Origin: Myxococcota bacterium
GTDB taxonomy: Bacteria > Myxococcota_A > UBA9160 > UBA6930
Reading direction: 5' to 3'
DNA: 64,000 nucleotides
Assembly (NCBI GenBank): GCA_965223415.1
Contig: OZ245002.1
Span: forward strand, 2,368,001-2,432,000
A program made the translations under genes and the position numbers. Below are positions 5,055-56,930 of this stretch, in pieces. Each line of letters starts with the position of its first letter. The first letter of the stretch is position 1. The notes beneath the pieces are model-generated. The model had not been told where the DNA came from and did not search any database. It saw nothing but the letters and a program-made list of their open reading frames with translations.

Positions 5055-5171
5055 ATGACCACTCCCGAGAGCGTCTCCGGCTCCTGCCTGTGCGGCGCCG
5101 TCCGGTTCACGGTGCGCATGCCCACGACCTTCTGCGGCCACTGCCACTGCACCATGTGCCGCCGCCTATGA
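5055..5171 (+). pseudogene. Truncated GFA/CENP-V family protein
   Basis: MTTPESVSGSCLCGAVRF...CHCTMCRRL* is the GFA N-terminus; it stops after 38 aa at the edge of the palindromic element. Confidence 0.8.
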
Positions 5172-5247
5172 AGAAACGGGGCCAGAGTTAAGAATTCAGT
5201 TGCCCAAAGGCAACTGAATTCTTAACTCTGGCCCCGTTTCTTAACTC
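5171..5247. repeat. Perfect 34-bp inverted repeat (REPIN/MITE-like)
   Basis: 5171-5204 AAGAAACGGGGCCAGAGTTAAGAATTCAGTTGCC, 4-nt loop, exact reverse complement 5209-5242; TTCTTAACTC repeated at 5219 and 5238. Confidence 0.9.
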
Positions 5248-18112: not shown

Positions 18113-19396
18113 ATGAGGAGCTTCCCGCCTCTGCCGGGCTGCGCCGCGCTGCTGGCGTGCTTCGGCTTCGCCACGTCTCTCGCCGCCGAGTCGCTCCCGT
18201 CCCCGCTTCCGCTCGTCTGGTGTCTGGAGCGCGCCGCGGTCGCGAACCCGTCGATTGCACACGGCGCGGCGCGCCGGGACGCCGCTCGGGCGCGCGTTCG
18301 GCCCGCGGGGGCCCTGGACGATCCCCGCATCCGCTACGAGGCGAGCAACGTTCCGGTCGGTGATCTGGACTTCCGCTCGACGCCGCTGTCCGGCCATCAG
18401 CTCGGTCTGAGCCAACGCTTGCCGTTTCCCGGGCTGCTCGCGAACCGCGAGGCCGCGGCCGAGGCCGGCGCCGAGGCCGCCGCGTTCGCGCTCGAGGACC
18501 GGGAGCTCGCCATCGCTGCGGCGGTAGAGACCGCCTGGGCCGAGCTTGGCTTCGCTCAGCGCGCGTTCGACATCACGGACCGCAACATCGACCTGCTCAA
18601 GCGGCTCGTGCAGGCCGCTGAGGCGCGGTACCGGGTCGGCTCGGGCCTCCAGCAGGACGTCCTCCGCGCCCAGGTCGAGCTGACGGCCCTCCTTGCCGAG
18701 AAGCTGACCCGTCAGGCGTGGATCGAACGCGCCTCCGGAGCCCTCGAGTCCCTCCTCGACCTTCCGGCAAAGACGTCCTTCCCGCGCACGGAGGGCCTCT
18801 CGGATGCCGCGACCGTTCCACAGCTCCCGCACCTCGCCGAGGAACTCGAGACCCGGAACGCGCGGCTCCTCTCGCTCGCTTCCGACGTGCGGGAGGCGGA
18901 GCGACTCGTCCGGGTGGCGGAGCTGGAGGGCTATCCGGACTTCGATCTCGGGCTCGGCTACCGCGTTCGTCACGCCGTAGGCGGCGACGCGGTCCGGGGC
19001 GACGACTTCCTGGGGGCCTTCGTAAGCGTTCGCCTTCCGGTGAACCGTGCCAAGTGGCACGACCGGGCGGCCGAGCGCCGAGCTCTCCTCCGACGTTCAC
19101 AGGCCGCCTACCGCGGTGCGCGTGCCGAGCTGCACGGCGCGTTGCGGACGGCGTACGCCGAGCTGGTGCGCGCCGATGCCGAGCGTACTCTGCTTCGCAC
19201 CGGCCTCGTGCCCCAGGCCCGCCAGTCCCTCGATTCGAGCCGCTCGGCCTACGCGGTCGGGCGCATCGATTTCCCGGCCTTGCTCGACAGCCAGGTGCGC
19301 TTCCATTCGGCGGAGCTCCGCCTGGTCCGCGCCGAGGCGGATCGCCGACAGGCCTACGCGGCCCTCGAGGTCGCAGCCGGGGAGAACCTCCGATGA
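18113..19396 (+). CDS. cusC: Outer-membrane efflux factor (TolC/CusC-like)
   Basis: SQRLPFPG, QQDVLRAQVEL, YAVGRIDF; AGGAGA RBS; precedes MFP and RND genes. Confidence 0.85.
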   Translation: MRSFPPLPGCAALLACFGFATSLAAESLPSPLPLVWCLERAAVANPSIAHGAARRDAARARVRPAGALDDPRIRYEASNVPVGDLDFRSTPLSGHQLGLSQRLPFPGLLANREAAAEAGAEAAAFALEDRELAIAAAVETAWAELGFAQRAFDITDRNIDLLKRLVQAAEARYRVGSGLQQDVLRAQVELTALLAEKLTRQAWIERASGALESLLDLPAKTSFPRTEGLSDAATVPQLPHLAEELETRNARLLSLASDVREAERLVRVAELEGYPDFDLGLGYRVRHAVGGDAVRGDDFLGAFVSVRLPVNRAKWHDRAAERRALLRRSQAAYRGARAELHGALRTAYAELVRADAERTLLRTGLVPQARQSLDSSRSAYAVGRIDFPALLDSQVRFHSAELRLVRAEADRRQAYAALEVAAGENLR

Positions 19397-20844
19397 GTCG
19401 CAACACCCTCTTCTCGGTCTTCGCCGTCTTCCTGGGGCTCGCCGCTGGCTGGTGGGGTCGCAGCGTCCTGGGCGGCGAGCAGGCCCACGACGCCTCGCCC
19501 GCCGCGTCCGAGGGCGGGCCCTGTCGAGGCGGCACTGCTCCCCTGTACTGGAAGGCTCCGATGGACCCCACCTACATCCGGCAGCAGCCGGGCATGTCTC
19601 CGATGGGCATGGACCTGGTGCCCGTGTGTCCCGGCGAGGCCGGGGCGCCCTCGGAAGGCGCCGTCGAGATCGATCCCCACACCGTCCAGAACATCGGCGT
19701 CCGCACGCAGACCGTGACCCGCCGTGATCTCGCCCGCTCGATCCGCGCGGTGGGCCGCGTCGTCTACGACGAGCGGCGAGTGGAGCACGTCCACACCAAG
19801 GTGCAGGGCTGGGTCGAGCGGCTCCACGTGGACTTCGTGGGCCAGGAGGTGCGGCGCGGGCAGCCCCTCCTCGAGGTCTACTCCCCGGAGCTGGTCGCGA
19901 CCCAGGAGGAGCTGCTCGTCGCTGCACGCTATCGGGAGGCCACGAGCACGAGCCCCTTCGAAGACGTGCGGGGAGGGGGCGCCTCCCTCTACGAGGCCAC
20001 GCGGCGCCGTCTCGAGCTGTGGGACATCCCGGATCGGGACATCGACCGGCTCCTCGAGACGGGCGAGATCCAGAAGACGCTCACCATGTATGCGCCCACC
20101 CGCGGCGTCGTCACCTCGCTCGGAGTGCGCGCCGGCATGGAGGTCGGGCCGAACCAGAACCTCTACACCATCGCCGACCTGTCGCAGGTCTGGGTGGTCG
20201 CCGACGTCTACGAGTACGAGCTCCCGTGGCTCGCCCTCGGCCAGACCGGCACCGTCGAGCTCGCGTACCTTCCCGGCAAGACGTTCTCCGGCCCGCTCAC
20301 CTACGTATCGCCGTTCCTCGACTCGAAGACCCGCACCGCCGAGGTGCGACTCGAGCTCCCCAACCCGGACGGAGCGCTCCGGCCGGAGATGTTCGGGAAC
20401 ATGATCATCCGCGGTGCGCCGCGCGAAGCGGTCGTCGCAGTCCCTTCCGAGGCCGTGATCCGATCCGGGCGGCGGAGCCTCGTCGTCGTCGCGCTCGGCG
20501 AGGGGCGCTTCGCCCCGCGTCCCGTCTCCATGGGCCTCGACTCGGGTGACGGCTGGCTCGAGGTGCAAGGCGGGTTGTCGGCCGGCGAGGAGATCGTCGT
20601 ATCGAGCCACTTCCTGATCGACAGCGAGAGCAACCTCCAGGAGGCCGTCCGCAAGCTTCTCGCCGCCGGCGCTCCGGAGGGCGAGGGGCACGCGGGTCAC
20701 GAGATGCCGTCGGCCGCGGATCCGCACGCGGGTCACGAGATGCCGTCGGCCGCGGATCCGCACGCGGGTCACGAGATGCCGGGGGCATCGGACGCGCCTC
20801 CAGCCGGTGACCAAGGCGGTGCCCACGACGGCGGCCAGGAGTAG
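19393..20844 (+). CDS. cusB: Heavy-metal RND periplasmic adaptor
   Basis: YWKAPMDP..SPMGMDLVP metal-binding domain, YSPELVATQEE, FLIDSESNL. Confidence 0.9.
   Translation: MSRNTLFSVFAVFLGLAAGWWGRSVLGGEQAHDASPAASEGGPCRGGTAPLYWKAPMDPTYIRQQPGMSPMGMDLVPVCPGEAGAPSEGAVEIDPHTVQNIGVRTQTVTRRDLARSIRAVGRVVYDERRVEHVHTKVQGWVERLHVDFVGQEVRRGQPLLEVYSPELVATQEELLVAARYREATSTSPFEDVRGGGASLYEATRRRLELWDIPDRDIDRLLETGEIQKTLTMYAPTRGVVTSLGVRAGMEVGPNQNLYTIADLSQVWVVADVYEYELPWLALGQTGTVELAYLPGKTFSGPLTYVSPFLDSKTRTAEVRLELPNPDGALRPEMFGNMIIRGAPREAVVAVPSEAVIRSGRRSLVVVALGEGRFAPRPVSMGLDSGDGWLEVQGGLSAGEEIVVSSHFLIDSESNLQEAVRKLLAAGAPEGEGHAGHEMPSAADPHAGHEMPSAADPHAGHEMPGASDAPPAGDQGGAHDGGQE
20689..20781 (+). repeat. In-frame 36-bp tandem repeat (about 2.6 copies) encoding HAGHEMPSAADP
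   Basis: CACGCGGGTCACGAGATGCCGTCGGCCGCGGATCCG identical at 20689 and 20725, partial at 20761. Confidence 0.95.
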
Positions 20845-26871: not shown

Positions 26872-28095
26872 ATGACCGACATCATGCGCGGCATCCGCGT
26901 TCTCGAGGTGGCCCAGTGGTGGTTCGTTCCCGCCGCGGGCGCGCTCCTCGCCGATTGGGGCGCGGACGTCATCAAGGTGGAGCATCCCGAGGGCGGCGAT
27001 GGGCAGCGCGGGCTGATCGCTTCCGGCCTCGTCTCCGCCACCGGTGGCGTGAACTTCATGATGGAGCAGTCGAACCGGGGCAAGCGCAGCGTCGGCATCG
27101 ACATCGGGCATCCGGACGGACGCGAGCTGATCTACCGCCTCGCCGAGACCAGCGACGTGTTCCTGACGAACTTCCTGCCGCCGGCGCGCAAGAAGCTTGA
27201 GATCGACGTGGAGCACATCCGGGCGCGGAACCCGGAGATCATCTACGTGCGCGGCAGCGGGCAGGGCGTGCGCGGGCCCCACGCGGAGAAGGCCGGCTAC
27301 GACGCGGTCTCCTTCTGGGCCCGCGGCGGCATCGGCGACGCCCTCACCCGGCCCTTCGACGACGTGCCCGTCGGGCCCCGGGCCGCCTTCGGCGATTCGA
27401 TCGGCGCCATGACCATCGCCGGCGGCATCTCCGCGGCGCTCTTCCGTCGCGCCCAGCACGGAGAGACATCGGTGGTGGACGTCTCGCTGCTCTCGACGGC
27501 CATGTGGACCCTCGGCCCGGACCTCGTCGCCAGCAAGCTGATGGGCTTCGACAAGATGGGCGTGGGCATGGGCTCGAAGGACGCGGCTCCCCCGAACCCG
27601 GTCGTCAACTCCTATCAGACGAAGGACGATCGCTGGATCATGCTGAACCTGCTCCAGGCGGATCGCTGGTGGCCGGACTTCTGTCGGCACATCGACCGCC
27701 CGGAGCTCGTCTCCGACGATCGCTTCGCGGACATGAAGGCGCGCTTCGAGAACCGGGAGGCCTGCGTGCAGATCCTCCGCGAGGCGTTCCGCGAGCGGAC
27801 CTACGAGGAGTGGAAGCAGAAGCTCGATACGATGGAGGGCGCCTGGGCCCCGTGGCAGACCCCGAAGGAGGCCACGGAGGATCCCCAGACCCTCGCCAAC
27901 GGCTACATGCCCGAGGTGACCTCCGCCGACGGCAAGACCTTCCACCTCGTCGCCAACCCGATCCAGTTCGACGAGAACGCCCCCGCGCTCAGCCCCGCGC
28001 CCGAGCACGGCCAGCACACCGAAGAGGTGCTGATGGAGCTCGGGCTCGCCTGGGACGACATCGCCCGCCACAAGGAGACCGGCGCCGTTCTCTAG
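26872..28095 (+). CDS. Family III CoA transferase (CaiB/BaiF)
   Basis: LADWGADVIKVE, NRGKRS, FGD, APEHGQHT. Confidence 0.93.
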   Translation: MTDIMRGIRVLEVAQWWFVPAAGALLADWGADVIKVEHPEGGDGQRGLIASGLVSATGGVNFMMEQSNRGKRSVGIDIGHPDGRELIYRLAETSDVFLTNFLPPARKKLEIDVEHIRARNPEIIYVRGSGQGVRGPHAEKAGYDAVSFWARGGIGDALTRPFDDVPVGPRAAFGDSIGAMTIAGGISAALFRRAQHGETSVVDVSLLSTAMWTLGPDLVASKLMGFDKMGVGMGSKDAAPPNPVVNSYQTKDDRWIMLNLLQADRWWPDFCRHIDRPELVSDDRFADMKARFENREACVQILREAFRERTYEEWKQKLDTMEGAWAPWQTPKEATEDPQTLANGYMPEVTSADGKTFHLVANPIQFDENAPALSPAPEHGQHTEEVLMELGLAWDDIARHKETGAVL

Positions 28096-28096
28096 A

Positions 28097-28118
28097 TGCA
28101 ACGCCCCCGGTTGCGTTC
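28097..28118. repeat. Short hairpin / degenerate arm-type element between convergent genes
   Basis: GCAAC-N7-GTTGC, containing the GTTGCGTT arm also seen at 38565 and 51307. Confidence 0.4.
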
Positions 28119-29460
28119 AGCTCTCGTCGGGGACGAAGTTGCCGTGGAAGCCGAAGGGGACGCGGGTGGGGAGGAGGATGGTGGCGATGGGACCGGCGGC
28201 GATGTGGGTGGCGTCGAGGACGACGACCTCCGAGCGGTTCTCGGCGGCGTCGTAGACGTAGGAGAGGAGCCAGCCCTCGTCCTCCGCCGCGTCGTCGCTC
28301 TTCGGGACGAAGACGGGCTCCATCGGGGCGCGTCCCGGACCGGCGACCCAGCTCTCGCAGCCGTTCTTCTCGAGGTCGTACTTCAGCAGCTCCCTGAAGT
28401 CGACGGCGCCTTCGCCCGCCTCAACGAAGCTGGCCGCGTAGCCGTAGCGCAGCGCACGGCCGACCCTTCGTTCGTCGTGGCGCGGGAACTCGACCTGGCG
28501 CTCGTCGAGGCGTTCTTCCTTGACGCTGCCCCCGGCCAGGTCGAAGGTCCACCGCGCCAGCACGGGGTTGCCTTCGGTGGGGCCGTTCCGGTTGCGATCG
28601 AACACACGCTCGTGTCGGACCGCGTCGAACACCACCTGGTCCGGGCCGACGTCGAAGGCGTTCAGGGGATGGAAGACGTAGCAGGAATCGATCTCGAACC
28701 ATCGCACCTCCTCGGCGGTGCCTTCGAGAGGCAGGAGGCCGATGCGCGCGCCGTACTCCGGATGCCAGGCGTAGGGGAAGCTCCCGCCCTGCTCCATCAC
28801 CTCCGGGTCGAAGATGCAGGGCAGGTCCATCAGCACGACGTGGCTCTCGGTGATGGCGGTATCGTGCACCATCGGGCCGCCGGGAACCGGAACCCCGACC
28901 GAGCGGCGTACCCGGCCGTCGGCGCCGACGACCACATGCTTGATGTGGTCCCACTCCCAGTAGTAGGTCACGGCGTGGAGCTCGCCGGTCGCCGGGTCCT
29001 TCTTCGGGTGGGCGGTGAAGCTGCCCTGGAGCGTGCCGCCGAAATCGCTGCGCGCGACGGTCTCCAGATCTTCGGTCAGCTCCACCGGCAGGCCACCGGC
29101 CTCGACGATTGCCCAGGTCTTGCCGGCGTGACCGATCACGTTGGTGTTGGCGGTGTTGCCGCCGGTACCGTGACGCGGGCCGGGGACCTCCGGCCAGCCC
29201 TTGGCCTCGCACACGCCGTCGTCGCGCACGTAGCGGTTCCGGTACCACTCGGCACGGCCGTCGCGCAGCCGCAGCCCGTGCACCATGCCGTTGCCGGTAA
29301 ACCAGTGGTAGGGCTCGGCCGGCGCGACCGGGTTCGGGCCGATGCGCAGGAGCCGCCCGTTCAGCTCGCGGGGCAGCTCGCCTCGTACCGGAAGATCGGT
29401 GACGGTGAGCTCCTCCTCGAGGGGAGCGAAGTTGCCGGAGAGAAACGGAGAGCTGGTCAT
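28117..29460 (-). CDS. Carotenoid oxygenase / lignostilbene dioxygenase family
   Basis: LSGNFAP, HWFTGNGMVHG, FTAHPK, MVHD, VFHPLNA, EPVFVP, GFHG. Confidence 0.93.
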   Translation of the reverse strand: MTSSPFLSGNFAPLEEELTVTDLPVRGELPRELNGRLLRIGPNPVAPAEPYHWFTGNGMVHGLRLRDGRAEWYRNRYVRDDGVCEAKGWPEVPGPRHGTGGNTANTNVIGHAGKTWAIVEAGGLPVELTEDLETVARSDFGGTLQGSFTAHPKKDPATGELHAVTYYWEWDHIKHVVVGADGRVRRSVGVPVPGGPMVHDTAITESHVVLMDLPCIFDPEVMEQGGSFPYAWHPEYGARIGLLPLEGTAEEVRWFEIDSCYVFHPLNAFDVGPDQVVFDAVRHERVFDRNRNGPTEGNPVLARWTFDLAGGSVKEERLDERQVEFPRHDERRVGRALRYGYAASFVEAGEGAVDFRELLKYDLEKNGCESWVAGPGRAPMEPVFVPKSDDAAEDEGWLLSYVYDAAENRSEVVVLDATHIAAGPIATILLPTRVPFGFHGNFVPDES

Positions 29461-30165: not shown

Positions 30166-31581
30166 ATGGCCCTGGTCTCGTACGCCGCCGCCTTCGCCGA
30201 GCTCGCCGCCGAGGCCCCGGACCGCCTGGCCCTGGTCTTCGAGGGCCGGGAGGTCCGCCGCGGCGAGCTCGATCGCCAGGCGAACCGGCTCGCCCGGTCC
30301 TTCGCCGAGCGCGGGGTCTGTGAGGGCGACCGCGTGGTGATCGCCCTCCCGAACTCGGTGGAGTTCGTGGCCGCGACCCTGGCGGTCTGGAAGCTCGGAG
30401 CCGTGCCCACGCCCGTCTCGTCCCGCCTGCCGGAGCGGGAGAGGCAGGAGATCGTCGCCCTGGCCGATCCGCGGCTGATGGTGGCGAAGGCGGAGGACGC
30501 CGTCCCTGCGGAGGGGCTCTCGGACGCGCCGCTTCCCGACCGCACGGCGCCCCATTCCCAGGCGATCGCGTCCGGCGGCAGCACCGGCCGGCCGAAGCTC
30601 ATCGTCGACGCGAACCCCGCCGCCTTCGATCCCGAGGCGGCCCACTACGGGGTCGGCGCCGGCACGGTGGTGCTCACGCCGGGCCCGCTCTTCCACACCG
30701 GGCCGTTCATCAACACCCGCGAGGCCCTGGTGCGCGGGGGCGTGGTCGTCCTCATGAGTCGCTTCGATCCCGAGGAGGCGCTCCGGCTGATCACCGAGCG
30801 CCGGGTGAACTGGGTGAATTTCGTGCCCACGATGCTTCACCGGATCTGGCGGCTGCCCGACGCGGTGAAGCAGGAGGCGGACCTCTCGTCGCTGCAGCGC
30901 GTCGTCTCGACCGGCGCCGCCTGCGCGGACTGGCTGATGCGCGCCTGGATCGAGTGGGTCGGGCCCGACCGCATGTTCGAGGCCTACGGCGGCACCGAGC
31001 GGATCGGCGGCACGTTGATCTCCGGCCGCGAGTGGCTCGAGCATCCCGGCTCCGTCGGGAAGCCCACCGGCGGCCGCCAGGTGCGGATCCTCGGCCCCGA
31101 CGGCGACGAGCTGCCTCCCGGCGAGGTCGGAGAGATCTTCATGCTGCCCCCCGGCGGGCAGGGCTCCACCTATCGCTACCTGGGCGCCCGGGCCAAGGCG
31201 ACCAGCGACGGCTGGGAGACGTTGGGCGATCTCGGCTACCTGGACGAGGACGGCTTCCTGTACCTGGTCGATCGCCGCACCGACATGATCGTGACCGGCG
31301 GCGAGAACGTGTACCCGGCCGAGGTGGAGGGCGCGATCGACGCGCACCCCGCCGTTCAGTCGAGCGCGGTGATCGGCCTGCCGGACGACGACCTGGGCGC
31401 CCGCATCCACGCCATCGTCGAGGCCGATCCGCCCGTGAGCGACGAGGCGCTGCGTGCCCACCTCGCCGAGCGCCTCGTCCGTTACAAGATCCCCCGCACC
31501 TTCGAGTTCGTGCAGGAGCCCCTCCGCGACGACGCCGGCAAGGTCCGCCGCTCCCGCCTCCGCGAAGAGCGCACAACTTAA
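30166..31581 (+). CDS. Acyl-CoA synthetase / bile-acid CoA ligase-like
   Basis: SGGSTGRPK, YGGTE, GDLGY, ENVYPAEVE, AGKVRR. Confidence 0.9.
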   Translation: MALVSYAAAFAELAAEAPDRLALVFEGREVRRGELDRQANRLARSFAERGVCEGDRVVIALPNSVEFVAATLAVWKLGAVPTPVSSRLPERERQEIVALADPRLMVAKAEDAVPAEGLSDAPLPDRTAPHSQAIASGGSTGRPKLIVDANPAAFDPEAAHYGVGAGTVVLTPGPLFHTGPFINTREALVRGGVVVLMSRFDPEEALRLITERRVNWVNFVPTMLHRIWRLPDAVKQEADLSSLQRVVSTGAACADWLMRAWIEWVGPDRMFEAYGGTERIGGTLISGREWLEHPGSVGKPTGGRQVRILGPDGDELPPGEVGEIFMLPPGGQGSTYRYLGARAKATSDGWETLGDLGYLDEDGFLYLVDRRTDMIVTGGENVYPAEVEGAIDAHPAVQSSAVIGLPDDDLGARIHAIVEADPPVSDEALRAHLAERLVRYKIPRTFEFVQEPLRDDAGKVRRSRLREERTT

Positions 31582-31608
31582 CAAACGGAACCGGCCCCTA
31601 ACTTAACA
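31575..31608 (-). repeat. Arm-core-arm mini element, copy A
   Basis: + strand AACTTAACA-AACGGAACCGGCCCCT-AACTTAACA, 25-bp arm period. Confidence 0.85.
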
Positions 31609-32401
31609 GGAAGTCGACGATGTGGGGGTTGGCTTTGGGGTCCTGGACGAGGAAGAGGTGGCCGCCTTCGAAGACGGCGAGCTCGGCGCCGGGGATCTGG
31701 GAGGCGATGGCTTCGCTGTTGGCGAGGGGGGCGATGCCGTCGTAGCGGCCGGCGCAGATGAGGGTGGGCATCGCCAGGGTGGGGAGCCGGTCGTAGACGT
31801 CGTGGTGTCGGCGCGCCTCGAGCTGGCGGGCGGCACCCTCGGCGCGGCCCGGCTCGCCGGCGCCGACGGTGGCGCGCTTCGCCATCATCGCCAGGACGTT
31901 CTCGAAGGCTTCCGGGTTCGCGGCGCGCCAGGCCGCGTCCATGCGCGTGTCGGCGAGCTCGAGGCCGTGGAGCGCGCGTTCGTCGTCGGGAAGCGACTGG
32001 AGCTCGTGCAGCGGATACGACGCACGGCCCGCGCCTCCGGGGCTCGTGCAGCACAGGACGAGGCGCTCGATCCGCTCGGGATACCGCACGGCCAGCTCCT
32101 GGGCGACCATCCCGCCGAAGGACACGCCGATGACCGAGCAGCGCTCCCACCCCACGTGATCGAGAAGCGCCGCGGCATCCTCGGCGTAGTCCTCCATCGT
32201 GTAGGGGCCGTCGGGCCTGTCCGTCTGGCCGAGCCCGCGCTGGTCGTGGGCCAGCAGGTCGAAATGCTCGCCTAACGGCCCCTCGAAGGGACCAGGACGT
32301 GCCCGCAGGTCGCCCTGACTCCCGTTCACGAAGAGCAGCGGTGGGCCCTTTCCCGCGCGCTCGTAGTAGATTCGGATCCCACGGAGCTCGACGTATGCCA
32401 T
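31598..32401 (-). CDS. Alpha/beta hydrolase (3-oxoadipate enol-lactonase-like)
   Basis: DQRGLG, GVSFGG nucleophile elbow, GRYD, GGH. Confidence 0.9.
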   Translation of the reverse strand: MAYVELRGIRIYYERAGKGPPLLFVNGSQGDLRARPGPFEGPLGEHFDLLAHDQRGLGQTDRPDGPYTMEDYAEDAAALLDHVGWERCSVIGVSFGGMVAQELAVRYPERIERLVLCCTSPGGAGRASYPLHELQSLPDDERALHGLELADTRMDAAWRAANPEAFENVLAMMAKRATVGAGEPGRAEGAARQLEARRHHDVYDRLPTLAMPTLICAGRYDGIAPLANSEAIASQIPGAELAVFEGGHLFLVQDPKANPHIVDFLLS

Positions 32402-36547: not shown

Positions 36548-38494
36548 GTGCGCAGGCTCGCTCTCGCCCTCGTCCTGCTGGCGGTCGTCGCCTCTGTCGT
36601 CCTCCTGTGTGACGTGGCGATGCTGGTCGGGCCGGGCCATGCGCCGTGGACGCCGCCGGGCGGGCCGGCCACGGCGCGCCCGCTCGCCCCGCGCGAGCCC
36701 TGCGCCCAGCGCGATCCCGCCCGGCGCGCCTTCTTCGGCGATCTCCACGTCCATACCGGTCTCTCGATGGACGCCACGATCCGCGGCGGAACGTCGACGC
36801 CCGACGAGGCCTACCGCTTCGCCCGGGGCGAGCCGATTCGGCTGCCGCCGGACCGCAGCCACGCCCTCGCGCGCCCCCTGGACTTCGCCGCCGTGACCGA
36901 CCACGCCGAGTGGCTGGGGGAAACCTCCCTCTGCAAGCGTCCGGGCTCGCCGGTCCACGACAGCACGGCGTGCCGCACCTTCCGGGGCGAGGAGCCCTCC
37001 TGGATGGGCGACAACCTGTTCGGTCGCATCGCTGCCGTGGTCGGCTTCCTCGGGCGCAACACCGACGTGTGTGGGGAGGGAGCCGCCGCCTGTCGCGCGG
37101 AGCTGGGCCTGGCTTGGCAGGAGACCCGGGCCGCCGCCGAGCGCTGGTACGACCGCTCGTCCGCGTGCTCCTTCACCACCTTCCACGCCTGGGAATACAG
37201 CGCCTCGCCCGGGCGCTCGAAGGTCCATCGCAACGTGATCTTGCGCAACGAGATCGTGCCCGAGCTGCCGATCTCCTGGATCGACGAGCCCTCCGCGGAG
37301 GGGCTCTGGCGCAAGCTGCTGGAGCGCTGCAACGACACCGGCACCGGCTGCGAGGCCCTGGCGATTCCCCACAACCCGAACGTGTCGAACGGCCAGATGT
37401 TCGTGCTCGACCGGAGTGGCGGCCGCGAGGCGGAGCGTGCCCGCGCGGAGCTGCGGGCCCGCCTCGAGCCGCTGGTCGAGATGGCCCAGGCGAAGGGCGA
37501 GTCCGAGTGCCGCAGCGGCTTCGCCGGCGTGCTCGGCGAGGACGAGCTGTGCGACGACGAGAAGATCCGTTGGATCGACGGGGCGCCGCCGCCGGACTGC
37601 GGCGACGGCAGCAGTCGCGGCGCCATGGCGGGCCGCGGCTGCCAGTCGCGCCTCGATTTTGTGCGCTACGTGCTGATCGAAGGCCTGCGGGAGGAAGCGC
37701 GCCTCGGCGTGAACCCCTACCGCCACGGCTGGATCGGCAGCACGGATACCCACAACGGCACGCCCGGCGCCACCGACGAGCCTTCTTATCCCGGCCACAA
37801 CGGCCTGACCGACGCCACCCTCGAGCAGCGCATCGGCACCGAGCAGGACAACTACGCGCCCTATCCGCTGCGCAACCCGGGCGGCCTGGTCGGGATCTGG
37901 GCAGAGGAGAACACTCGCGACGCCCTCTTCGACGCCATGAAGCGCCGGGAGACCTTCGCCACCAGCGGAACGCGCATCACGCCGCGCTTGTTCGCGGGCT
38001 GGGATCTGCCGGCGGACGCCTGCGAACGCGTCGGCGCCGAAGGTGTCCCGATGGGTGCCGTGCTGCCGCCGCCTCCCGCCGGCTCCGGCGCGCCCTCGTT
38101 TCACGTGTCCGCCCTGCGCGACGCCGCCGGCGGCCAGCTCCAACGCATCCAGATCGTGAAGGCGTGGGTCGGCGGCGACGGTGCCTTCCGCCAGCAGGTC
38201 CACGACGTCGCCGGCTTCGCTTCCGGCGAGGCCGACGTGGACCGAGCCACCTGCACCCCGACCGGCCGCGGCGCGGATTCCCTCTGCGCCGTCTGGCAGG
38301 ACCCGGGCTTCGACCCCGCCCGCCCCGCCATCTACTACGCCCGCATCCTCGAGAACCCGAGCTGCCGCTGGAACGCCCACCAGTGCAACGCCCTCCCGGA
38401 ACCCCAACGCCCCGTCGCCTGCACCGACCCCACCCTCCCCTGGCGCACCCAGGAACGCGCCTGGACCTCCGCCATCTGGTACACGTTAAGATAG
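36548..38494 (+). CDS. DUF3604 family (PHP-like) exported protein
   Basis: FFGDLHVHT, LDFAAVTDHAE, HRNVI, IPHN, GSTDTH, QERAWTSAIWY. Confidence 0.88.
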   Translation: MRRLALALVLLAVVASVVLLCDVAMLVGPGHAPWTPPGGPATARPLAPREPCAQRDPARRAFFGDLHVHTGLSMDATIRGGTSTPDEAYRFARGEPIRLPPDRSHALARPLDFAAVTDHAEWLGETSLCKRPGSPVHDSTACRTFRGEEPSWMGDNLFGRIAAVVGFLGRNTDVCGEGAAACRAELGLAWQETRAAAERWYDRSSACSFTTFHAWEYSASPGRSKVHRNVILRNEIVPELPISWIDEPSAEGLWRKLLERCNDTGTGCEALAIPHNPNVSNGQMFVLDRSGGREAERARAELRARLEPLVEMAQAKGESECRSGFAGVLGEDELCDDEKIRWIDGAPPPDCGDGSSRGAMAGRGCQSRLDFVRYVLIEGLREEARLGVNPYRHGWIGSTDTHNGTPGATDEPSYPGHNGLTDATLEQRIGTEQDNYAPYPLRNPGGLVGIWAEENTRDALFDAMKRRETFATSGTRITPRLFAGWDLPADACERVGAEGVPMGAVLPPPPAGSGAPSFHVSALRDAAGGQLQRIQIVKAWVGGDGAFRQQVHDVAGFASGEADVDRATCTPTGRGADSLCAVWQDPGFDPARPAIYYARILENPSCRWNAHQCNALPEPQRPVACTDPTLPWRTQERAWTSAIWYTLR

Positions 38495-38517
38495 GGGCCG
38501 GTTCCGTTTGTTAAGTT
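38485..38517 (+). repeat. Arm-core-arm mini element, copy B
   Basis: GTTAAGAT-AGGGGCCGGTTCCGTTT-GTTAAGTT; core identical to copy A. Confidence 0.85.
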
Positions 38518-38539
38518 GCTTCGCCCAGCTACCGCACCT

Positions 38540-38572
38540 GTTGCGCAAGGGGCCGGTTCCGTCCGTTGCGTT
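38540..38572 (+). repeat. Arm-core-arm mini element, copy C
   Basis: GTTGCGCA-AGGGGCCGGTTCCGTCC-GTTGCGTT. Confidence 0.8.
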
Positions 38573-38584
38573 CCGAACGACGGA

Positions 38585-39183: not shown

Positions 39184-40014
39184 ATGAAGCTCGACGATCG
39201 CATCGCTGTCATCACCGGGGGCGCGAGCGGCATCGGCAAGGGCCTGGCCGAGCGCTTTCATCGGGAAGGGGCCCGCCACGTGGTCGTGGCCGATCGGGAC
39301 GAGGCCGGGGCGCGCAGCGTGGCCGAGGCCATCGGGGGCACCGGCGTCGGCGTCGACGTCTCCGACGAAGGCGCCGTCCGCGCCCTGGTACAGGAGACCG
39401 AGCGCACCCATGGCGCCATCGATCTACTCGTCTCCAACGCCGGCTACGTCACCATCGGTGGTCTCGAGGCGCCGACCGCGGACCTGCAGCGCATGTGGGA
39501 GGTGCACGTGCTCGCACACCTCTTCGCGGCCCGCGCCGCCCTGCCGGGCATGATCGCTCGCGGCCGTGGCTACCTGCTCAACACCGCCTCCGCCGCTGGC
39601 CTCCTCACCCAGCTCGGCTCGCTCCACTATTCGGTGACCAAGCACGCGGCCATCGCCCTGGCCGAGTGGCTCGCCATCACCCACGGCCATCAGGGCATCC
39701 GCGTCTCCGTGCTGTGTCCCCAGGCCGTCGAGACCAACATCGGCGCCAATAGCCCGGACCGCGACAGGATGGAAGGCGGCGGCGCCGACGTGGCCAGCCA
39801 GGACGGCGTCCTCCAGCCCGAGGACGTGGGCCAATGCGTCGTCGAAGCTCTCGACGAGGAGCGCTTCTGGGTGCTGCCCCACCCCGAGGTCGCCGAGTAC
39901 GCGCGCCGCAAGGCCTCGGACGTCGATCGCTGGCTCGGGGGCATGATGCGCTTCCAGAAGCAGCTGTTCGGTGAGGCGAACCAGCCCGCGGACTGGCTCA
40001 CCCCGCGACGTTAG
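39184..40014 (+). CDS. SDR oxidoreductase
   Basis: TGGASGIG, NAG, YSVTK. Confidence 0.92.
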   Translation: MKLDDRIAVITGGASGIGKGLAERFHREGARHVVVADRDEAGARSVAEAIGGTGVGVDVSDEGAVRALVQETERTHGAIDLLVSNAGYVTIGGLEAPTADLQRMWEVHVLAHLFAARAALPGMIARGRGYLLNTASAAGLLTQLGSLHYSVTKHAAIALAEWLAITHGHQGIRVSVLCPQAVETNIGANSPDRDRMEGGGADVASQDGVLQPEDVGQCVVEALDEERFWVLPHPEVAEYARRKASDVDRWLGGMMRFQKQLFGEANQPADWLTPRR

Positions 40015-42301: not shown

Positions 42302-43969
42302 GCTACTTCCCGTCCGAGAAGAGCCGTTCGTCGGCCTCTTAGTGGATCGTTGGCGGTCTTCGCGGGCGTTGAGAGTAGCGATGTCACAGCAGTCCCGGAG
42401 CCGTCGGGGTGAGTGAGCGACCGTGTTCCGATGCGCGGGCGCACGTGTCCACCGACCGAACCACTCTCAGGGGTTCAGGCGAACTCGCGAGTCAGCAGGT
42501 GGCGGGCCAAGGCGACGAGGTTGAAGCTCGTCACACTGGCCCAGACATAGGCCTTGAAGGACGCCAGGCCCCGCCAGGTGCATCGGTCCATCTGGAACGC
42601 TCGCTTGAGCGTCGAGATCACGCCCTCGATCCCCGAGCGGAAGTCACGAAGGCGCCGGAAGACCCAGGCGCTGCGCACCATCTCGTGGACCTCGAGTCCG
42701 CTCTTCTTGTTGAAGGCCATGTCTTCCACGCCGAGCGCCTTGGCCTTGGCAACGTTGTCCATGGACGCGAAGCCTCCGTCCATCGCCACTTGGCGGGGTG
42801 CCTTGCCGAAGAGATCTGCATGGCGCTCGAGCGTACGTTCGACCAGCGTCGAGTCCGTAGGGTTTCCTTCCTCGATGACACAGTCGAGGACGAGTGACGA
42901 CCTGCCGCCAGTCAGACAGACCTTGTGACCGTAGTAGGTGCCTCGATTGTCCTTCACGAGGATGTCCGAGTGCGGCTCGAAGATCGACACGATCTTCTCG
43001 GCTGCAGGGACGCGCTCGCCTTCGAGGACACGGCGACGGCTCTGATCGATGACGCGCTCGACGAGGGGAAGCACCGCGAGGAGCTCTTCGCGAAGCGGCG
43101 TCGTGTCTTCGACTCGGGCGACCCTCTCCGCGACGCTACGGGCCGCTTGGCAGACCTCTTCCGTGGCCCGGATCATGCACCGATAGCTCGCGACCAGGTT
43201 GATCGACCGCCGGTGGAACTTGATCGCGTAGGCGCGTCGCTTCACGCAACGACGACGATCCGGGAACATCTTGCGCAGCGAAGGGCGTTGCTTCGCCATC
43301 CTTCGCAAAATCCGCGTCATCACCCGAACGCTGTCCCAGAGCAGGGCCGAGTCGGCGGGCTCGTGGATGTTCGCCTCGACGACCGTCGTATCCGCCCGAA
43401 TCGTCTCGCCTCGTTCGATTCCTTCCCGGCGAGCCAGGCCGATCAACGCACGGTGGATGGCTTCCCACGTCTCGGGCCGGATCCGTTTGACGTTGTCCTG
43501 AAGGGTCTGGAAGCGGGGCCAGTCACCGAGCCCGAGTCCTACGAAGCTGCGGAAGGCGGCCGAGTCCTGGAGGTGAAACTCCAACTCCCGGTAGCTCAGC
43601 CCGTGGATCTGCTTGAGTAGGGCGATTCGAAGGACCTGATCGCCGCTGAGGCCCCGACGGCCGGTATCGGCGCGACGTTCCCCGATCAGATCTCCGTGCA
43701 CAACAGCACCCAAGCGCGGATCCGCCCCGAGGATCCTGGCGATCATCTGCAGCTCTCGGGTATGTTGATGCGGACCCCATGTGGGCGTGAGTGAGAGCTG
43801 AGTTTCTCGGAATCGGCGCATCGCTTCACCCCCCGGTTGGCGAATTGCTGTGTATGTTCGGTAGGTTGGCACCACCTAACATACACCAATCGAAACTCGA
43901 TCGGGAGGCGCGTTTGCGCCAATTCCTTTTCTTCTCAGTGACTTACGAGTTCTTGGACGGGAAGTAGGC
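42301..43969. mobile_element. Insertion sequence (ISNCY/IS5-like)
   Basis: Terminal IRs GGCTACTTCCCGTCCGAGAA / GCCTACTTCCCGTCCAAGAA (18/20) around a transposase; visibly lower GC. Confidence 0.9.
42475..43821 (-). CDS. DDE transposase (ISNCY/IS5-like)
   Basis: RADTTVVEANI..P.D, KIVSIFEPH, MDGGF, FRSGIEGVIS.LKR. Confidence 0.92.
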   Translation of the reverse strand: MRRFRETQLSLTPTWGPHQHTRELQMIARILGADPRLGAVVHGDLIGERRADTGRRGLSGDQVLRIALLKQIHGLSYRELEFHLQDSAAFRSFVGLGLGDWPRFQTLQDNVKRIRPETWEAIHRALIGLARREGIERGETIRADTTVVEANIHEPADSALLWDSVRVMTRILRRMAKQRPSLRKMFPDRRRCVKRRAYAIKFHRRSINLVASYRCMIRATEEVCQAARSVAERVARVEDTTPLREELLAVLPLVERVIDQSRRRVLEGERVPAAEKIVSIFEPHSDILVKDNRGTYYGHKVCLTGGRSSLVLDCVIEEGNPTDSTLVERTLERHADLFGKAPRQVAMDGGFASMDNVAKAKALGVEDMAFNKKSGLEVHEMVRSAWVFRRLRDFRSGIEGVISTLKRAFQMDRCTWRGLASFKAYVWASVTSFNLVALARHLLTREFA

Positions 43970-46929: not shown

Positions 46930-47715
46930 CTAACGTCGCCGGTACTTGGGCTCGCGGCCCGCCTCGCGGGCCGCCTTCATCTCGGCGTAGTCGTCCGAGC
47001 CGAAGACCAGGGTCTGGGTGGCCGCCTCGTCGACGATCGACTTCCTCACCTCGTCGTGGGCCAGGAGCCCGAGGTTGCGTCGGAACATCTTCACCGTGAA
47101 GGCGGGAGCCTTGGCGATCTCGTGGGCGACGGCCAGGGCCGCCTCCTCGAGCTCGTCGTCCGGGACGACCCGGGACACCACGCCGTGGCGAAGCGCCTCC
47201 TCCGCGTCCATCACGCGTCCTGTGAGCGCCAGATCGGCGACCAGGCCGTGGCCCGCCATCTGGAAGAGGCGCGCGGTGCCGCCGCTGTCCGGGATCACGC
47301 CGTGCTTCACCTCCGGCAGCATCATGCGCGTGCTCTCGGCGGCGACGCGCATGTCGCAGAGCAGGGCGCGCTCGAAGGAGCCGCCGATCACCCAGCCCTT
47401 CATGGCCACGAGGATGGGGGCGGGCATGCTGAAGAAGAGCTGGGCACCCCGGTGGCCGCGCTCGATGAAGTCCAGGTTGCTGATGTCCTCGGTGCGCACG
47501 CCGATCTCGGCGACGTCGCGGCCGGAGGAGAAGCTCTTGCCGTTGCCCCGCCAGAGGATCGCGCGCACCTCCGGGTGGTCGTCGTGGAGCTCCCGGAGCA
47601 CCTCCCAGAGGCGCGTGTCCATCGCGTCGTTGGCGGCGTTGTGCTTCTCCGGCCGGTTGTTGCTCATCACGGCCACCGGGCCGTCGAACTCGAGGGTGAT
47701 CAGCGCCTCGCTCAT
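46930..47715 (-). CDS. Enoyl-CoA hydratase/isomerase family
   Basis: NRPEKHNA, FSSGRD, GGSFE, PEVKHG. Confidence 0.9.
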   Translation of the reverse strand: MSEALITLEFDGPVAVMSNNRPEKHNAANDAMDTRLWEVLRELHDDHPEVRAILWRGNGKSFSSGRDVAEIGVRTEDISNLDFIERGHRGAQLFFSMPAPILVAMKGWVIGGSFERALLCDMRVAAESTRMMLPEVKHGVIPDSGGTARLFQMAGHGLVADLALTGRVMDAEEALRHGVVSRVVPDDELEEAALAVAHEIAKAPAFTVKMFRRNLGLLAHDEVRKSIVDEAATQTLVFGSDDYAEMKAAREAGREPKYRRR

Positions 47716-47765
47716 CGGGATCTCCTCAGGCGGCGTGGTAGAAAGGGTAGGCCGCAGGGTCGGCC

Positions 47766-47792
47766 CAGAATTGTATATTGTATGCAATTCTG
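47766..47792. promoter_or_regulatory. GntR-type operator (second copy)
   Basis: CAGAATTGTATA-TTG-TATGCAATTCTG; 16/18 match to the reverse complement of 7884-7901. Confidence 0.7.
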
Positions 47793-47837
47793 CGTATGGT
47801 GCGAGACTCGGGGCGACCCGAGCCGCGGGAGGGGTCG

Positions 47838-48800
47838 ATGTTCACGATGCGATTCGACATGCGGGCGCCCGCCTCCGGGGCGCCGATCCAGGACCTGTAC
47901 CAGGCTGCTCTCGAGATGAGCGCCTGGGCGGAGACCCGCGGGTGCCTGATGTCGATCGTGTCCGAGCACCACGGGTCTTCGGACGGCTACCTCTCGGCGC
48001 CCTTCGTGCTCGCCTCCGCCCTCGCCGCGCGGACGAGCACGCTGCCGATCCAGGTGGCCGCCCTGCTGGTGCCGCTCCACGACCCGATCGAGCTGGCCGA
48101 GCAGATGGCTGTGCTCGACGTGCTCTCGGGCGGCCGTGTCTCCTACGTGTGCGCCATCGGCTACCGCGCCGAGGAGTACGCGATGTTCGGCCGCGACATG
48201 AAGCAGCGGGGCAAGCGCATGGACGCCTGCCTCCAGGCGATGCGGAAGGCATGGACCGGCGAATCCTTCACCTACGAGGGGCGCCCGGTCAGCGTGACGC
48301 CGACTCCGCTCACGCCGGGAGGGCCGACGCTCTTCATGGGCGGCTCGTCGCCGGCCGCGATCCGGCGCGCCGCCCGCTTCGGAATGGGGATGCTGGGCCA
48401 GGGCGGGCCGCCGGAGCTGGAGCAGCTCTACCTCGATGCCTGCAAGGAGTACGGCACGACGCCCGGCATGTTCGTCAACCCGCCCCCGGACGCGCCGACC
48501 AGCGTCTTCGTCGCCGAGGACCCGGACCGCGCCTGGGCCGAGATCGGCCCCTACCTGCTGCACGACGCGAACATGTACGCCGAATGGATGGGCGCCGGCT
48601 CGGATCGCGCCAGCGGCTCCGGCGCCCTGACCGTCGATGCTCTGCGCGCAGAGAACGGCAACTACCGGATCCTGACGCCCGAGCAGGCCAAGGGCCTGAT
48701 CGCCGCCGGCGCGCCGCTCCTCCTCCAGCCCCTCGTCGGCGGTCTGCCCCCCGAGCACGGCTGGCGCTGTCTGGAGCTCGTCACGACCAAGGTCCTGTGA
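47838..48800 (+). CDS. LLM-class flavin-dependent oxidoreductase
   Basis: SEHH, LAARTS, LAEQ.A.LD.LSGGR, GYR..EY. Confidence 0.9.
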   Translation: MFTMRFDMRAPASGAPIQDLYQAALEMSAWAETRGCLMSIVSEHHGSSDGYLSAPFVLASALAARTSTLPIQVAALLVPLHDPIELAEQMAVLDVLSGGRVSYVCAIGYRAEEYAMFGRDMKQRGKRMDACLQAMRKAWTGESFTYEGRPVSVTPTPLTPGGPTLFMGGSSPAAIRRAARFGMGMLGQGGPPELEQLYLDACKEYGTTPGMFVNPPPDAPTSVFVAEDPDRAWAEIGPYLLHDANMYAEWMGAGSDRASGSGALTVDALRAENGNYRILTPEQAKGLIAAGAPLLLQPLVGGLPPEHGWRCLELVTTKVL

Positions 48801-48818
48801 ACGAGAGCCTCGCGTTCA
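48798..48818. terminator. Hairpin between convergent genes
   Basis: TGAACG...CGTTCA spanning both stop codons; no U-tract. Confidence 0.3.
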
Positions 48819-49790
48819 GGGCTCGACGACGACCTTGCCGACGACGCGGCGTTCCTGGAGATCTCGGAGAGCCTGGGGCGCCTCCTCCAGGGAATAGCGC
48901 TTCGAGACGTGGGGCTTCAGCTGGCCGGTGACGATCAGCTCGTCGAGGTCGCGCAGGATGGCTTCGCGGGTCTCGGGCTCGCGGCTCACCATCGATCCGA
49001 AGAAGACGCCGACGATCTGGCAGCCCTTGAGCAGCGTCAGGTTGAGCGGGATCTTCGGGATGCCGGCGGTGAAGCCGATCACCAGGAAGCGGCCGTTCCA
49101 GGCGGTGGCGCGGAGGGCGGCCTCGGCGTAGTCGCCGCCGACGGCGTCGTAGACCACGTCCGCGCCAGCACCGCCGGTGAGCTCCTTGGTCCGCTCCTTC
49201 AGGTCCTCGCGGCTGTAGTCGATGGCCTCGTCGGCGCCGCGCTCGCGGCACAGGGCGAGCTTCTCGGCCGACGACGCGGCGGCGATCACGCGCGCACCGG
49301 TGATCTTGCCCAGCTCGACGGCCGCGAGGCCGACGTTGCCGCCGGCGCCGAGCACGAGGAGCGTCTCGCCCTTCTGCAGCTGCCCGCGGTGCGCGAGGGC
49401 GTAGCGCGCCGTGCCGTAGGCGTACATCATGCCGGTCACTTCCGCGAAGCCGATGCCGTCCGGCAACCGGCGCAGCCCCGCCGCCGGGAGCAGCGCCCGC
49501 TCCGCGAACCCGCCGGTGATTCCCAGGCTGCCGACCACCGCGTCACCGACCGCGACACCCTCCACGCCTTCTCCGAGCTCGCGGACCACGCCGGCGACCT
49601 CGCCTCCCGGAACGAACGGCGGCGTGGCCTTGAACTGGTACGCATCCTCGATGACCAGCGCGTCCGGGAAGGTGACGCCGGCGGCGCGCACGTCCACCAC
49701 GACCTGGCCCGGGCCGGCGACGGGATCCGGGATCTCCTCGACGACCAGGCTCTCCGGCGGCCCGAACTGCTTGCAGACGACGGCTCTCAC
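48816..49790 (-). CDS. NADPH:quinone oxidoreductase (MDR) family
   Basis: PFVPGGEVAG, GAGGNVG, DAVGG, GKVVV. Confidence 0.92.
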   Translation of the reverse strand: MRAVVCKQFGPPESLVVEEIPDPVAGPGQVVVDVRAAGVTFPDALVIEDAYQFKATPPFVPGGEVAGVVRELGEGVEGVAVGDAVVGSLGITGGFAERALLPAAGLRRLPDGIGFAEVTGMMYAYGTARYALAHRGQLQKGETLLVLGAGGNVGLAAVELGKITGARVIAAASSAEKLALCRERGADEAIDYSREDLKERTKELTGGAGADVVYDAVGGDYAEAALRATAWNGRFLVIGFTAGIPKIPLNLTLLKGCQIVGVFFGSMVSREPETREAILRDLDELIVTGQLKPHVSKRYSLEEAPQALRDLQERRVVGKVVVEP

Positions 49791-51308: not shown

Positions 51309-51340
51309 CGCAACAAAGGGAACCGGTCCCTAACGCAACA
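51307..51340 (-). repeat. Arm-core-arm mini element, copy D
   Basis: + strand AACGCAACA-AAGGGAACCGGTCCCT-AACGCAACA, 25-bp period. Confidence 0.85.
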
Positions 51341-56392: not shown

Positions 56393-56902
56393 ATGAGCGA
56401 ACTCGAACGGCGGGTCGCCGATCTCGAGCGGCGCGTCGACGCCGCCGAGTCGGTGCTGGCGATCCAGAACCTGAAAGCGCGTTACGCCCAGCTCGTGGAT
56501 CAGCGCTACACGCGGGGCAGCGTCGTGGACGAAGCGCGGCTCGCCGAGATCGCCGAGCAGATCGCAGGCCTCTTCGCCGAGGACGGCGTCTGGGACGCGG
56601 GCAAGGCCCTCGGCATCGCGCGCGGTCGCGCCGAGATCGCCGAGCGCATGCGCAAGCCGACCCTCGCGTTCTCCTGGCACTACTTCGTGAAGCCCGAGAT
56701 CCACGTCGACGGCGACCGCGCGCGAGCGCGCTGGGACATCCTCTCCCCCTGCACCACCCCGGATGGACAACCCCAGTGGATGAGCGGGTTCGAGGACGAC
56801 GAGTACGTCCGCATGGGCGGCCTCTGGCTCCACCAGCACATGAAGCTGGGCGTCGTCTTCATGGCGCCCCACGCCACCGGCTGGCAGAAGATCTTCACCT
56901 GA
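56393..56902 (+). CDS. SnoaL/NTF2-like (BaiE-like) protein
   Basis: IQNLKARYAQLVD, LFAEDG, WHYF, EDDEY. Confidence 0.85.
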   Translation: MSELERRVADLERRVDAAESVLAIQNLKARYAQLVDQRYTRGSVVDEARLAEIAEQIAGLFAEDGVWDAGKALGIARGRAEIAERMRKPTLAFSWHYFVKPEIHVDGDRARARWDILSPCTTPDGQPQWMSGFEDDEYVRMGGLWLHQHMKLGVVFMAPHATGWQKIFT

Positions 56903-56930
56903 ACCCGGCAGGGGTTGGCGCGTTCAGGTG
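56896..56930. terminator. Hairpin between convergent genes
   Basis: CACCTGAAC...GTTCAGGTG inverted repeat. Confidence 0.35.

Follow-up and report, generated by a model that had tools for sequence, protein, structure and literature searches.

Rho-dependent terminators are the closest described systems to the one analyzed here, a set of G-poor gene ends that run into short repeat elements in a 64,000-nucleotide (nt) stretch of the genome of a Myxococcota bacterium (contig OZ245002.1, positions 2,368,001 to 2,432,000; hereafter the window, with positions numbered from its first nt). Rho utilization (rut) sites, or "C>G bubbles," are C-rich, G-poor, YC-rich (Y, pyrimidine), weakly structured stretches of RNA, ~80 to >150 nt long, that lie upstream of a pause site at the end of a gene (available text of PMC13613805 and PMC13323073). 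Fragments terminated by Rho have >150-nt stretches with C>G (PMC13323073). The tracts in the window are alike in these respects, but they lie within translated sequence at the gene's 3′ end, arise almost wholly from synonymous choice, stand upstream of a hairpin, and are tied to specific repeat elements; their dependence on Rho is putative. A termination factor can also shape synonymous composition, as in the Rho-avoidance purine bias described in the accessible part of Dierksheide et al. 2026 (PMC13323073); recoding alone can make a Rho terminator, and in B. subtilis synonymous recoding of one gene was sufficient for Rho termination. That bias, however, is a gene-wide avoidance of C-rich sequence, whereas the window shows a local gain at the gene end, and the sense strands in the window are not purine biased.

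Among repeats, the closest counterparts are the repetitive extragenic palindromic (REP) elements and bacterial interspersed mosaic elements (BIMEs) of E. coli, short, dispersed, hairpin-capable repeats that follow both tandem and convergent genes, act there both as partial Rho-dependent terminators and as stabilizers of mRNA, and have been proposed to work in both directions (bioRxiv 10.64898/2026.03.23.713779). The commonest element in the window, which we call the core element, is placed in the same way, as a short dispersed repeat past tandem and convergent genes. Unlike REP/BIMEs, it is not a true palindrome, and the genes' own stop codons lie within it. The REP motif itself has no C>G skew, and the available text of that report gives no recoding of the neighboring genes. 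No REP-type tyrosine transposase was found among the 59 proteins of the window (Pfam).

In mycobacteria, which also have GC-rich genomes, Rho works at, and before, weak "I-shaped" hairpin terminators that lack a U tract and lie just past stop codons; the same source states, in its accessible part, that the mycobacterial rut is undefined and that what constitutes a rut site in GC-rich bacteria is unknown (bioRxiv 10.1101/2022.07.21.500918). A 41-kb Mycobacterium stretch had none of the G-poor gene tails described below. Positive GC skew past human gene ends has been tied to R-loops and termination, and there, as in the window, the nascent RNA turns G-rich immediately after the gene end, but the human regions are eukaryotic, noncoding, and kilobase-scale (PMC3787257, available text). 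The arrangement in the window is like that of a factor-dependent terminator, except that the signal sits within coding sequence and is linked to a conserved repeat. Full-text literature searches, whose coverage leaves out most subscription journals, turned up no account of G depletion at synonymous sites next to bacterial repeats.

Genes that run into an element have G-poor tails

The window is 71% G+C. Gene calling with a codon-usage frame plot gave 59 genes, of which 53 have Pfam matches (19 of 20 in one set and 34 of 39 in the rest); they mostly encode enzymes of acyl coenzyme A (acyl-CoA) and lipid metabolism, transporters, and regulators. We measured G depletion as G/(G+C) at 4-fold degenerate sites (the G fraction), usually over the last 50 codons, the gene tail. 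Over all genes the 4-fold codons gave 4764 G and 7147 C, a background of 0.40. Twelve gene ends abut an element, and the other 47 ends served as controls, among which the G fraction varied widely from gene to gene (0.16 to 0.75). Four of the 12 (the 3′ flanks of the palindromes at 48798-48818 and 56900-56926) were included post hoc, because both palindromes were noticed only after the depletion of their flanks had been seen.

An initial annotation, made by eye, had linked mini elements to G-poor gene tails, and its hand counts were reproduced almost exactly when we recounted the 4-fold codons over the same spans. The recounts gave 2 G in 43 codons for a thiolase gene (5241-5450; 2/43 by hand), 4 in 36 for a hydrolase gene (31600-31790; 3/35), 3 in 26 for a DUF3604 gene (38341-38490; 3/26), and 1 in 20 for the span 38585-38700 (1/21). 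Within 31400-31860 the tails of an AMP-ligase gene and the hydrolase gene gave 5/36 and 6/50. An adh (alcohol dehydrogenase [ADH]) gene gave 3/25 (51341-51500), and the two sides of position 28097 gave 1/31 (RPE65, 28117-28270) and 6/26 (CoA-transferase, 27940-28095). A control end without an element (55070-55278) gave 21/42 (22/43 by hand), and the start of a sulfatase gene gave 25/50 (about 24/45).

The link held when the ends were pooled. The last 50 codons of the eight ends named in the initial annotation had 22 G and 193 C, versus 602 and 865 at the other 51 ends (P = 1e-5, Mann-Whitney test). With the four post hoc ends added, the counts were 43 G and 282 C, versus 581 and 776 at the 47 other ends (P = 8e-26, Fisher's test). 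Among convergent junctions alone, ends with and without an element separated almost completely, with G fractions of 0.03 to 0.31 at the 10 element ends versus 0.31 to 0.48 at the 12 element-free ends. Neither those 12 ends, nor 8 ends in the window that precede gaps of at least 70 nt, nor the element-free ends in general were depleted, so the skew is not shared by element-free ends; such sharing would have overturned the earlier claim. The element-linked depletion of G in gene tails is real and strong.

A scan blind to position, over 18,066 windows of 40 codons, found depletion at P < 1e-4 in six genes, and in five of these the site was a 3′ end at an element. The sole internal match was in an SDR gene (39184..40014), where 44 codons at 39334-39465 had 1 G and 25 C with no element nearby. 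The G fraction was 8 to 12% in the last 40 codons, 21 to 27% in codons 40 to 70 from the gene end, and ~0.4 by about codon 140; fitted tracts were 41 to 150 codons long. The skew was centered on the element and fell off with distance on either side. The exception in the window was an enoyl-CoA hydratase gene (2..769), whose stop overlaps the start of the next gene and whose tail (610-769) is moderately G-poor (5 G and 26 C) with no element. The tails are true coding sequence, with Pfam domains that end 1 to 3 residues before the stop in the thiolase, RPE65, DUF3604, and two ADH genes.

Some tails in the window have the opposite composition. That of an HlyD-family gene (19393..20844), which has three tandem 36-nt units in its 3′ end (20688-20795), is G-enriched (16 G and 7 C in the last 52 codons), and that of a sodium:solute symporter gene (17265-17444) is strongly so (29 G and 9 C in the last 60 codons). 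A 128-nt gap with a promoter-like site (17511-17538) follows the symporter gene. There was no trend toward G-rich tails at operon-internal junctions among the gene ends of the window.

The pattern recurs in a second genome and is absent from two other GC-rich bacteria

We scanned a genome collection, which did not include the source genome, with a pattern that fits all four core copies of the window. The scan returned two loci, L001 and L002, both from one metagenome-assembled genome of 63 to 65% G+C. The two loci have no orthologous gene in common with the window (one paralogue is 26% identical), and the element alone matches at the DNA level.

Two genes of this relative, encoding an arginine decarboxylase and a CoA-transferase, read into the core element. 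The last 40 codons of each of these two depleted ends had 1 G, 18 C, and 5 A at 4-fold sites, and A- versus G-ending 2-fold codons numbered 5:0 and 6:0. The 30-nt noncoding spacer before the L002 element is likewise C-rich and G-poor. The gene on the other side of that element (L002 7498..8097) is not depleted (9 G and 13 C). One end (L002 11880) is depleted (4 G and 20 C) with nothing recognizable downstream, and the other depleted L002 ends precede a long palindrome, a tandem 33-nt unit, or a stop-bearing palindrome. The tandem pair of 33-nt units follows a lytic transglycosylase gene, and the long palindrome follows a tyrosine recombinase gene (L002 5137-5200 and 690-775).

Two annotated 41-kb stretches that resemble the window in gene content served as controls: one, with 34 genes and 70% G+C, is from a Streptomyces plasmid, and the other, with 37 genes and 66% G+C, is from a replicon of Mycobacterium branderi. 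A G fraction of ≤0.12 was found at 0 of the 34 Streptomyces ends and 0 of the 37 Mycobacterium ends (0/71), versus 7 of the 59 ends in the window; the lowest control values were 0.19 in Streptomyces and 0.25 in Mycobacterium. Four convergent Streptomyces junctions with clear hairpins were undepleted, and the pattern is therefore not a general feature of hairpin junctions. Because the pattern recurs in the relative yet is absent from the 71 Streptomyces and Mycobacterium ends, it is lineage specific and not a general property of GC-rich genomes.

The elements

The mini elements were sorted into three kinds: the core element, a long perfect palindrome, and small stop-bearing palindromes (Table 1). 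The core element, of ~33 nt, consists of AAC-nn-AAC, a short A-rich link, a core centered on GGAACCGG, and AAC-nn-AAC again. The window has four copies, and L001 and L002 have a single copy apiece; every copy lies at a gene end. They fall into two subtypes, TT and GC, whose paired flanking 8-nt repeats change together. These repeats are direct, not inverted, and are identical in copies at different sites; therefore, they are parts of the element and not target duplications. The core element is accordingly not a miniature inverted-repeat transposable element, as it has neither terminal inverted repeats nor target duplications.

TABLE 1 Elements and G-poor gene tails in the window. Tail counts are G:C at 4-fold degenerate sites.
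Feature	Position	Strand	Description
Perfect palindrome, 34-bp arms	5171..5242		Between thiolase end and transglycosylase start; RNA of either strand predicted to fold at −65 to −67 kcal/mol; stops in 6/6 frames
Small palindrome	28093..28119		Contains stops of CoA-transferase and RPE65-family genes; hairpin −8 to −10 kcal/mol
Core mini element, TT type	31574..31607	−	G/U-rich strand in hydrolase mRNA; contains stops of both convergent genes; inverted match to 38485-38518, exact pattern match; stops in 6/6 frames; 100% identical over 34 nt to L002 7466-7499
Core mini element, TT type	38485..38518	+	G/U-rich strand on +; contains DUF3604 stop; 100% identical over 36 nt to L001 1159-1194
Core copy 2, GC type	38545..38575	+	Same orientation as 38485..38518; core at 38548-38562, − strand match of A/C form
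Small palindrome	48798..48818		Contains both stops of convergent luciferase-like/zinc ADH pair; found via flank depletion
Core mini element, GC type	51309..51343	−	G/U-rich strand in adh mRNA; between adh end and sulfatase start; folds −14 (− strand) and −6.4 (+ strand) kcal/mol
Small palindrome	56900..56926		Contains both stops of convergent SnoaL-like/PDZ pair; 1 mismatch; hairpin about −20 kcal/mol; found via flank depletion
Thiolase tail, last 150 codons	5244..5693	−	9:71 vs 55:69; peak in last 64 codons; last 50 codons 1:28
CoA-transferase tail, weaker	27940..28092	+	6:19 in last 50 codons; 0:8 in last 16
RPE65-family oxygenase tail, last 52 codons	28120..28275	−	1:30 vs 75:127
AMP-binding (acyl-CoA ligase) tail, last 41 codons	31456..31578	+	1:22 vs 120:166 in rest of gene; AMP-binding_C match to residue 495/515
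Alpha/beta hydrolase tail, last 92 codons	31601..31876	−	6:48 vs 42:53; last 50 codons 1:25; C/G over 120 nt up to 2.4
DUF3604 tail, last 125 codons	38117..38491	+	9:60 vs 122:188; Pfam DUF3604 to residue 646/648
Tail of 182-aa gene without Pfam family, last 45 codons	38588..38722	−	1:24 vs 41:38
Luciferase-like monooxygenase tail, moderate	48498..48797	+	17:44 over 100 codons vs 74:63
Zinc ADH (48816..49790) tail, moderate	48819..48968	−	6:23 in last 50 codons
Zinc ADH (51341..52417) tail, last 43 codons	51344..51472	−	0:19 vs 65:117
SnoaL-like tail, last 120 codons	56540..56899	+	11:46 vs 27:19
PDZ-domain tail, last 98 codons	56927..57220	−	6:51 vs 16:16; last 50 codons 1:27

Stop codons occur in five or six of the six frames in the four TT-type core copies and the long palindrome, and in zero to three in the GC-type copies; the small palindromes carry just two stops, those of the flanking genes. 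Unlike a REP/BIME, the core element is not an imperfect palindrome with a stable stem-loop on either strand. Its predicted fold energies are −2.0 to −6.4 kcal/mol for the A/C strand and −4.5 to −14 kcal/mol for the G/U strand, and its stem is weak and dependent on G·U pairs, with a U-rich 3′ side. The element is polar, in that the G/U-rich strand alone folds as RNA. At five of the five core loci this strand falls within the transcript of whichever gene has the longer or stronger tract; in codons 50 to 100 from the gene end, the genes on the G/U-strand side had 12 G and 49 C versus 24 and 30 on the other side (P = 0.005).

Because 34 to 36 nt of the core element are identical in the window and the 64%-GC relative amid unrelated neighboring genes, the element is either mobile or strongly conserved and constrained in sequence. 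The identical spans are 31575-31608, matched by L002 7466-7499, and 38485-38520, matched by L001 1159-1194. Element types that are unrelated to each other (core, small palindromes, long palindromes, and the tandem 33-nt unit in L002) have G-poor tails alike. No Rfam family matched at gathering thresholds over the window, and the two element regions gave only chance-level matches.

Other repeats and mobile sequences in the window include a DDE transposase gene (42475..43821; DUF772 and DDE_Tnp_1 domains) in a stretch of lower GC content (63 to 66%, 42302-44133) that is probably an insertion sequence. At 58601-58728 there are three tandem 41-nt units, 89 to 100% alike, each of which repeats the last codons and stop of a scramblase-family gene (58689..59339). 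The 182-amino-acid (aa) protein (38585-39133) resembled DUF4124 clusters in a protein-atlas feature search (score, 0.91), which we take as a lead only.

The codon pattern

Over their final 40 codons, the 12 ends had 236 C, 26 G, 7 T, and 2 A at 4-fold sites (n = 271), so G, A, and T were all lower; A+T made up 3.3% of 4-fold sites in tails versus 7.6% in gene bodies (P = 0.0065). Among Glu codons, in which the choice is between A and G, the share of GAA was 16/45 in tails versus 125/1061 in gene bodies and 12/142 at control ends. G in the first codon position was only slightly lower in tails (0.385 versus 0.43). The replacement bases at the depleted ends of the relative include A besides C, which also reads as G avoidance. 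The rule that emerges, C wherever possible and otherwise not G, is what selection on composition predicts. Because 4-fold sites lose A and T too while Glu codons gain A, selection is favored over a single mutational bias, although a mix of mutational biases filtered by GC pressure could also yield the pattern.

The initial annotation had proposed that the elements mark sites of recurrent, strand-biased mutagenesis or repair, with selection on the composition of the mRNA 3′ end as its alternative. Nothing in these data shows mutagenesis or repair, the codon pattern runs against one simple bias, and the alternative fits that pattern better.

Under the annotation's proposal, the skew should follow the position of the element and not the direction of transcription. 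In three flanks transcription leads away from an element, and all three lean towards G, which is the mirrored direction; thus, the skew does not clearly follow transcription. The transglycosylase start had 18 G and 10 C in 50 codons, the top sense skew of the 59 gene starts; the sulfatase start had 17 G and 13 C, which is unremarkable; and the start of a nuclease gene in L001 had 9 G and 1 C in its first 20 codons. Gene starts generally have G fractions of 0.40 to 0.43. The mirrored effect is far weaker at gene starts than in tails, and three such cases cannot settle the cause. A divergent junction at 47700-47900 (genes 46930..47787 and 47778..48800) also has two G-rich starts (6 G to 3 C and 8 G to 1 C in 20 codons), so that the + strand goes from C to G there, a polarity shared with the elements.

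The tails resemble rut sites in composition and predicted structure

The last 120 nt of the 12 tails averaged 27.6% G and 41.7% C, a C/G ratio of 1.58 versus 1.03 in controls. They have the composition of rut sites, which are at least ~78 nt with C>G and many YC dinucleotides; the last 120 nt had 28.2 YC versus 21.5 in controls (P = 8e-6). They are also predicted to be weakly folded, at −40.5 versus −53.0 kcal/mol per 120 nt (P = 2.5e-5).

The element ends do not carry intrinsic terminators (a hairpin plus a U tract), since a consensus scan placed none there. Over the window, scans for a hairpin plus a T run found 4, 2, and 4, versus 4.3, 4.2, and 5.1 expected from shuffles.

Two structural roles for the tails were also rejected. 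Long hairpins between the C-rich tail and the G-rich far flank were no more stable or cross-paired in the native combination than in chimeras or at four element-free junctions. Nor do the tails insulate the element hairpin, as native or other depleted tails gave that hairpin no higher a pair probability than did 24 of the 47 control tails (every second one), and often gave a lower one.

Discussion

The G-poor tails may be a signal, embedded in genes themselves, that stops transcription, although their cause is not settled. The reading that we tentatively prefer is that they are selected rut-like loading tracts which, together with the element, form a composite transcription terminator or insulator. 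Synonymous codon choice would keep at least the last 120 nt of the coding RNA C-rich, G-poor, and weakly folded, the composition to which Rho loads. The element would provide stop codons that release ribosomes, in some copies in every reading frame, and a weak hairpin, U-rich in the core type, at which RNA polymerase might pause. Once the last ribosome was gone, the C-rich tail would be free, and a Rho-type factor could load and catch the paused polymerase within a very short gap. Between convergent genes a tract lies on both approaches, and the module would work both ways.

Several observations weigh against this mechanism. The tract is part of translated RNA, in which rut sites are normally covered by ribosomes; with Pfam domains reaching the last residues, the RNA is not ribosome free, and the tract would become so only after the last ribosome had left. 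The RNA made past the element is G-rich, the opposite of rut. At 3 of the 12 ends, C/G over all positions is only 1.05, 1.15, and 1.24, and windows with C/G of at least 1.8 also occur inside eight other genes. In the window, C is more abundant on sense than on antisense strands, whereas the Rho-avoidance pattern is the reverse. At element-free ends, neither the tails nor the gaps downstream are C-rich (of 10 untranslated gaps of at least 70 nt after such ends, 9 had C/G of 0.84 to 1.2 and one had 1.55); a C-rich signal is therefore not a general requirement here. A signal in the sense transcript alone does not predict the mirrored lean of the three flanks from which transcription leads away from an element. 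Neither rho nor nusG is among the 59 genes of the 64-kb window (Pfam). In four species, the peak of predicted rut sites lies downstream of the 3′ stem-loop, by ~50 nt, and not upstream (PMC13613805, available text), and Rho termination is reported to be dominant in Mycobacterium (PMC12288462, available text), yet our Mycobacterium control has no G-poor tails.

Of the other explanations, mutagenesis survives best, although we consider it unlikely. The elements would be sites of recurrent strand-asymmetric damage, cutting, resection, or error-prone fill-in that strips G from the strand reading toward the element on both sides, with purifying selection leaving the trace at synonymous sites only. 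Such a process would account for a skew that is centered on the element and decays on both sides, for the mirrored lean of the three flanks, and for the composition of the noncoding spacer at L002. Several elements are palindromic, and palindromes can be cut by SbcCD in E. coli. However, the core element is no palindrome at the DNA level and is polar relative to the stronger tail, and cruciform or hairpin cleavage works poorly on stems of 5 to 9 bp. No single bias explains the loss of A/T and G at 4-fold sites alongside the gain of A in Glu codons, and G-to-C transversions are uncommon as a mutational outcome. Also difficult for this explanation are the undepleted L002 gene end beside its element and the weakness of the mirrored effect at gene starts compared with tails.

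Selection could instead act, without Rho, on the strand asymmetry of the DNA or of an RNA:DNA hybrid, which we regard as improbable. Past the element, G-rich RNA on a C-rich template would form R-loops and block transcription, while the C-rich approach would keep nascent RNA out of hybrids at the place where polymerases linger; each tail would thereby protect its own gene against read-through by the neighbor. The polarity of the strand being read, from C-rich through the element to G-rich, is indeed found at every element in any gene order, and G-rich nontemplate strands block RNA polymerases in vitro. The human GC-skew regions past gene ends (PMC3787257) lend it further support, but we found no bacterial precedent in the literature. 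In tandem genes, moreover, the G-rich stretch would fall in the 5′ end of the downstream gene, the transcription of which it would hinder, and the potential for G-quadruplexes on the G-rich strand is inconsistent (5 of the 12 tails pass the G4Hunter threshold in >5% of windows, and 1 of the 12 has the canonical motif).

There is a small chance that causality is reversed, the tails existing for some other reason and the elements inserting, or surviving best, where C-rich sequence switches to G-rich. A core repeat that is dispersed and wholly identical over 34 to 36 nt in two genomes and unrelated gene contexts would suit this view, as would the few depleted ends without an element (2..769 in the window and L002 11880). 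Those ends are few and milder, however; unrelated types of element would all need the same target preference; and the origin of the tails would be left unexplained. Chance, gene-calling error, or ordinary variation in codon usage, for which the wide spread of G fractions at control ends might be invoked, is practically ruled out by P values of 1e-5 to 8e-26, by Pfam domains that run almost to the stops, by recurrence in an independent assembly, and by the lack of comparably low values at the 71 ends from other bacteria.

Each of the main readings would have consequences. If the elements are mutagenic, the finding would be categorically new, with a repeat of ~30 nt reshaping a few hundred bases of neighboring coding DNA; as mutational footprints, the tails would make small repeats local drivers of sequence change in their neighbors. 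If the tails are loading sites, as we tentatively prefer, they would give a sequence-readable picture of termination in a GC-rich lineage without classical terminators. A termination signal could then span 40 to 150 codons of coding sequence, which would bear on how codon usage is read, on tests for selection at synonymous sites, and on the recoding of genes for expression. Under either cause the pattern is easily scored, and the ends of transcription units should be predictable from sequence alone in related uncultured genomes.

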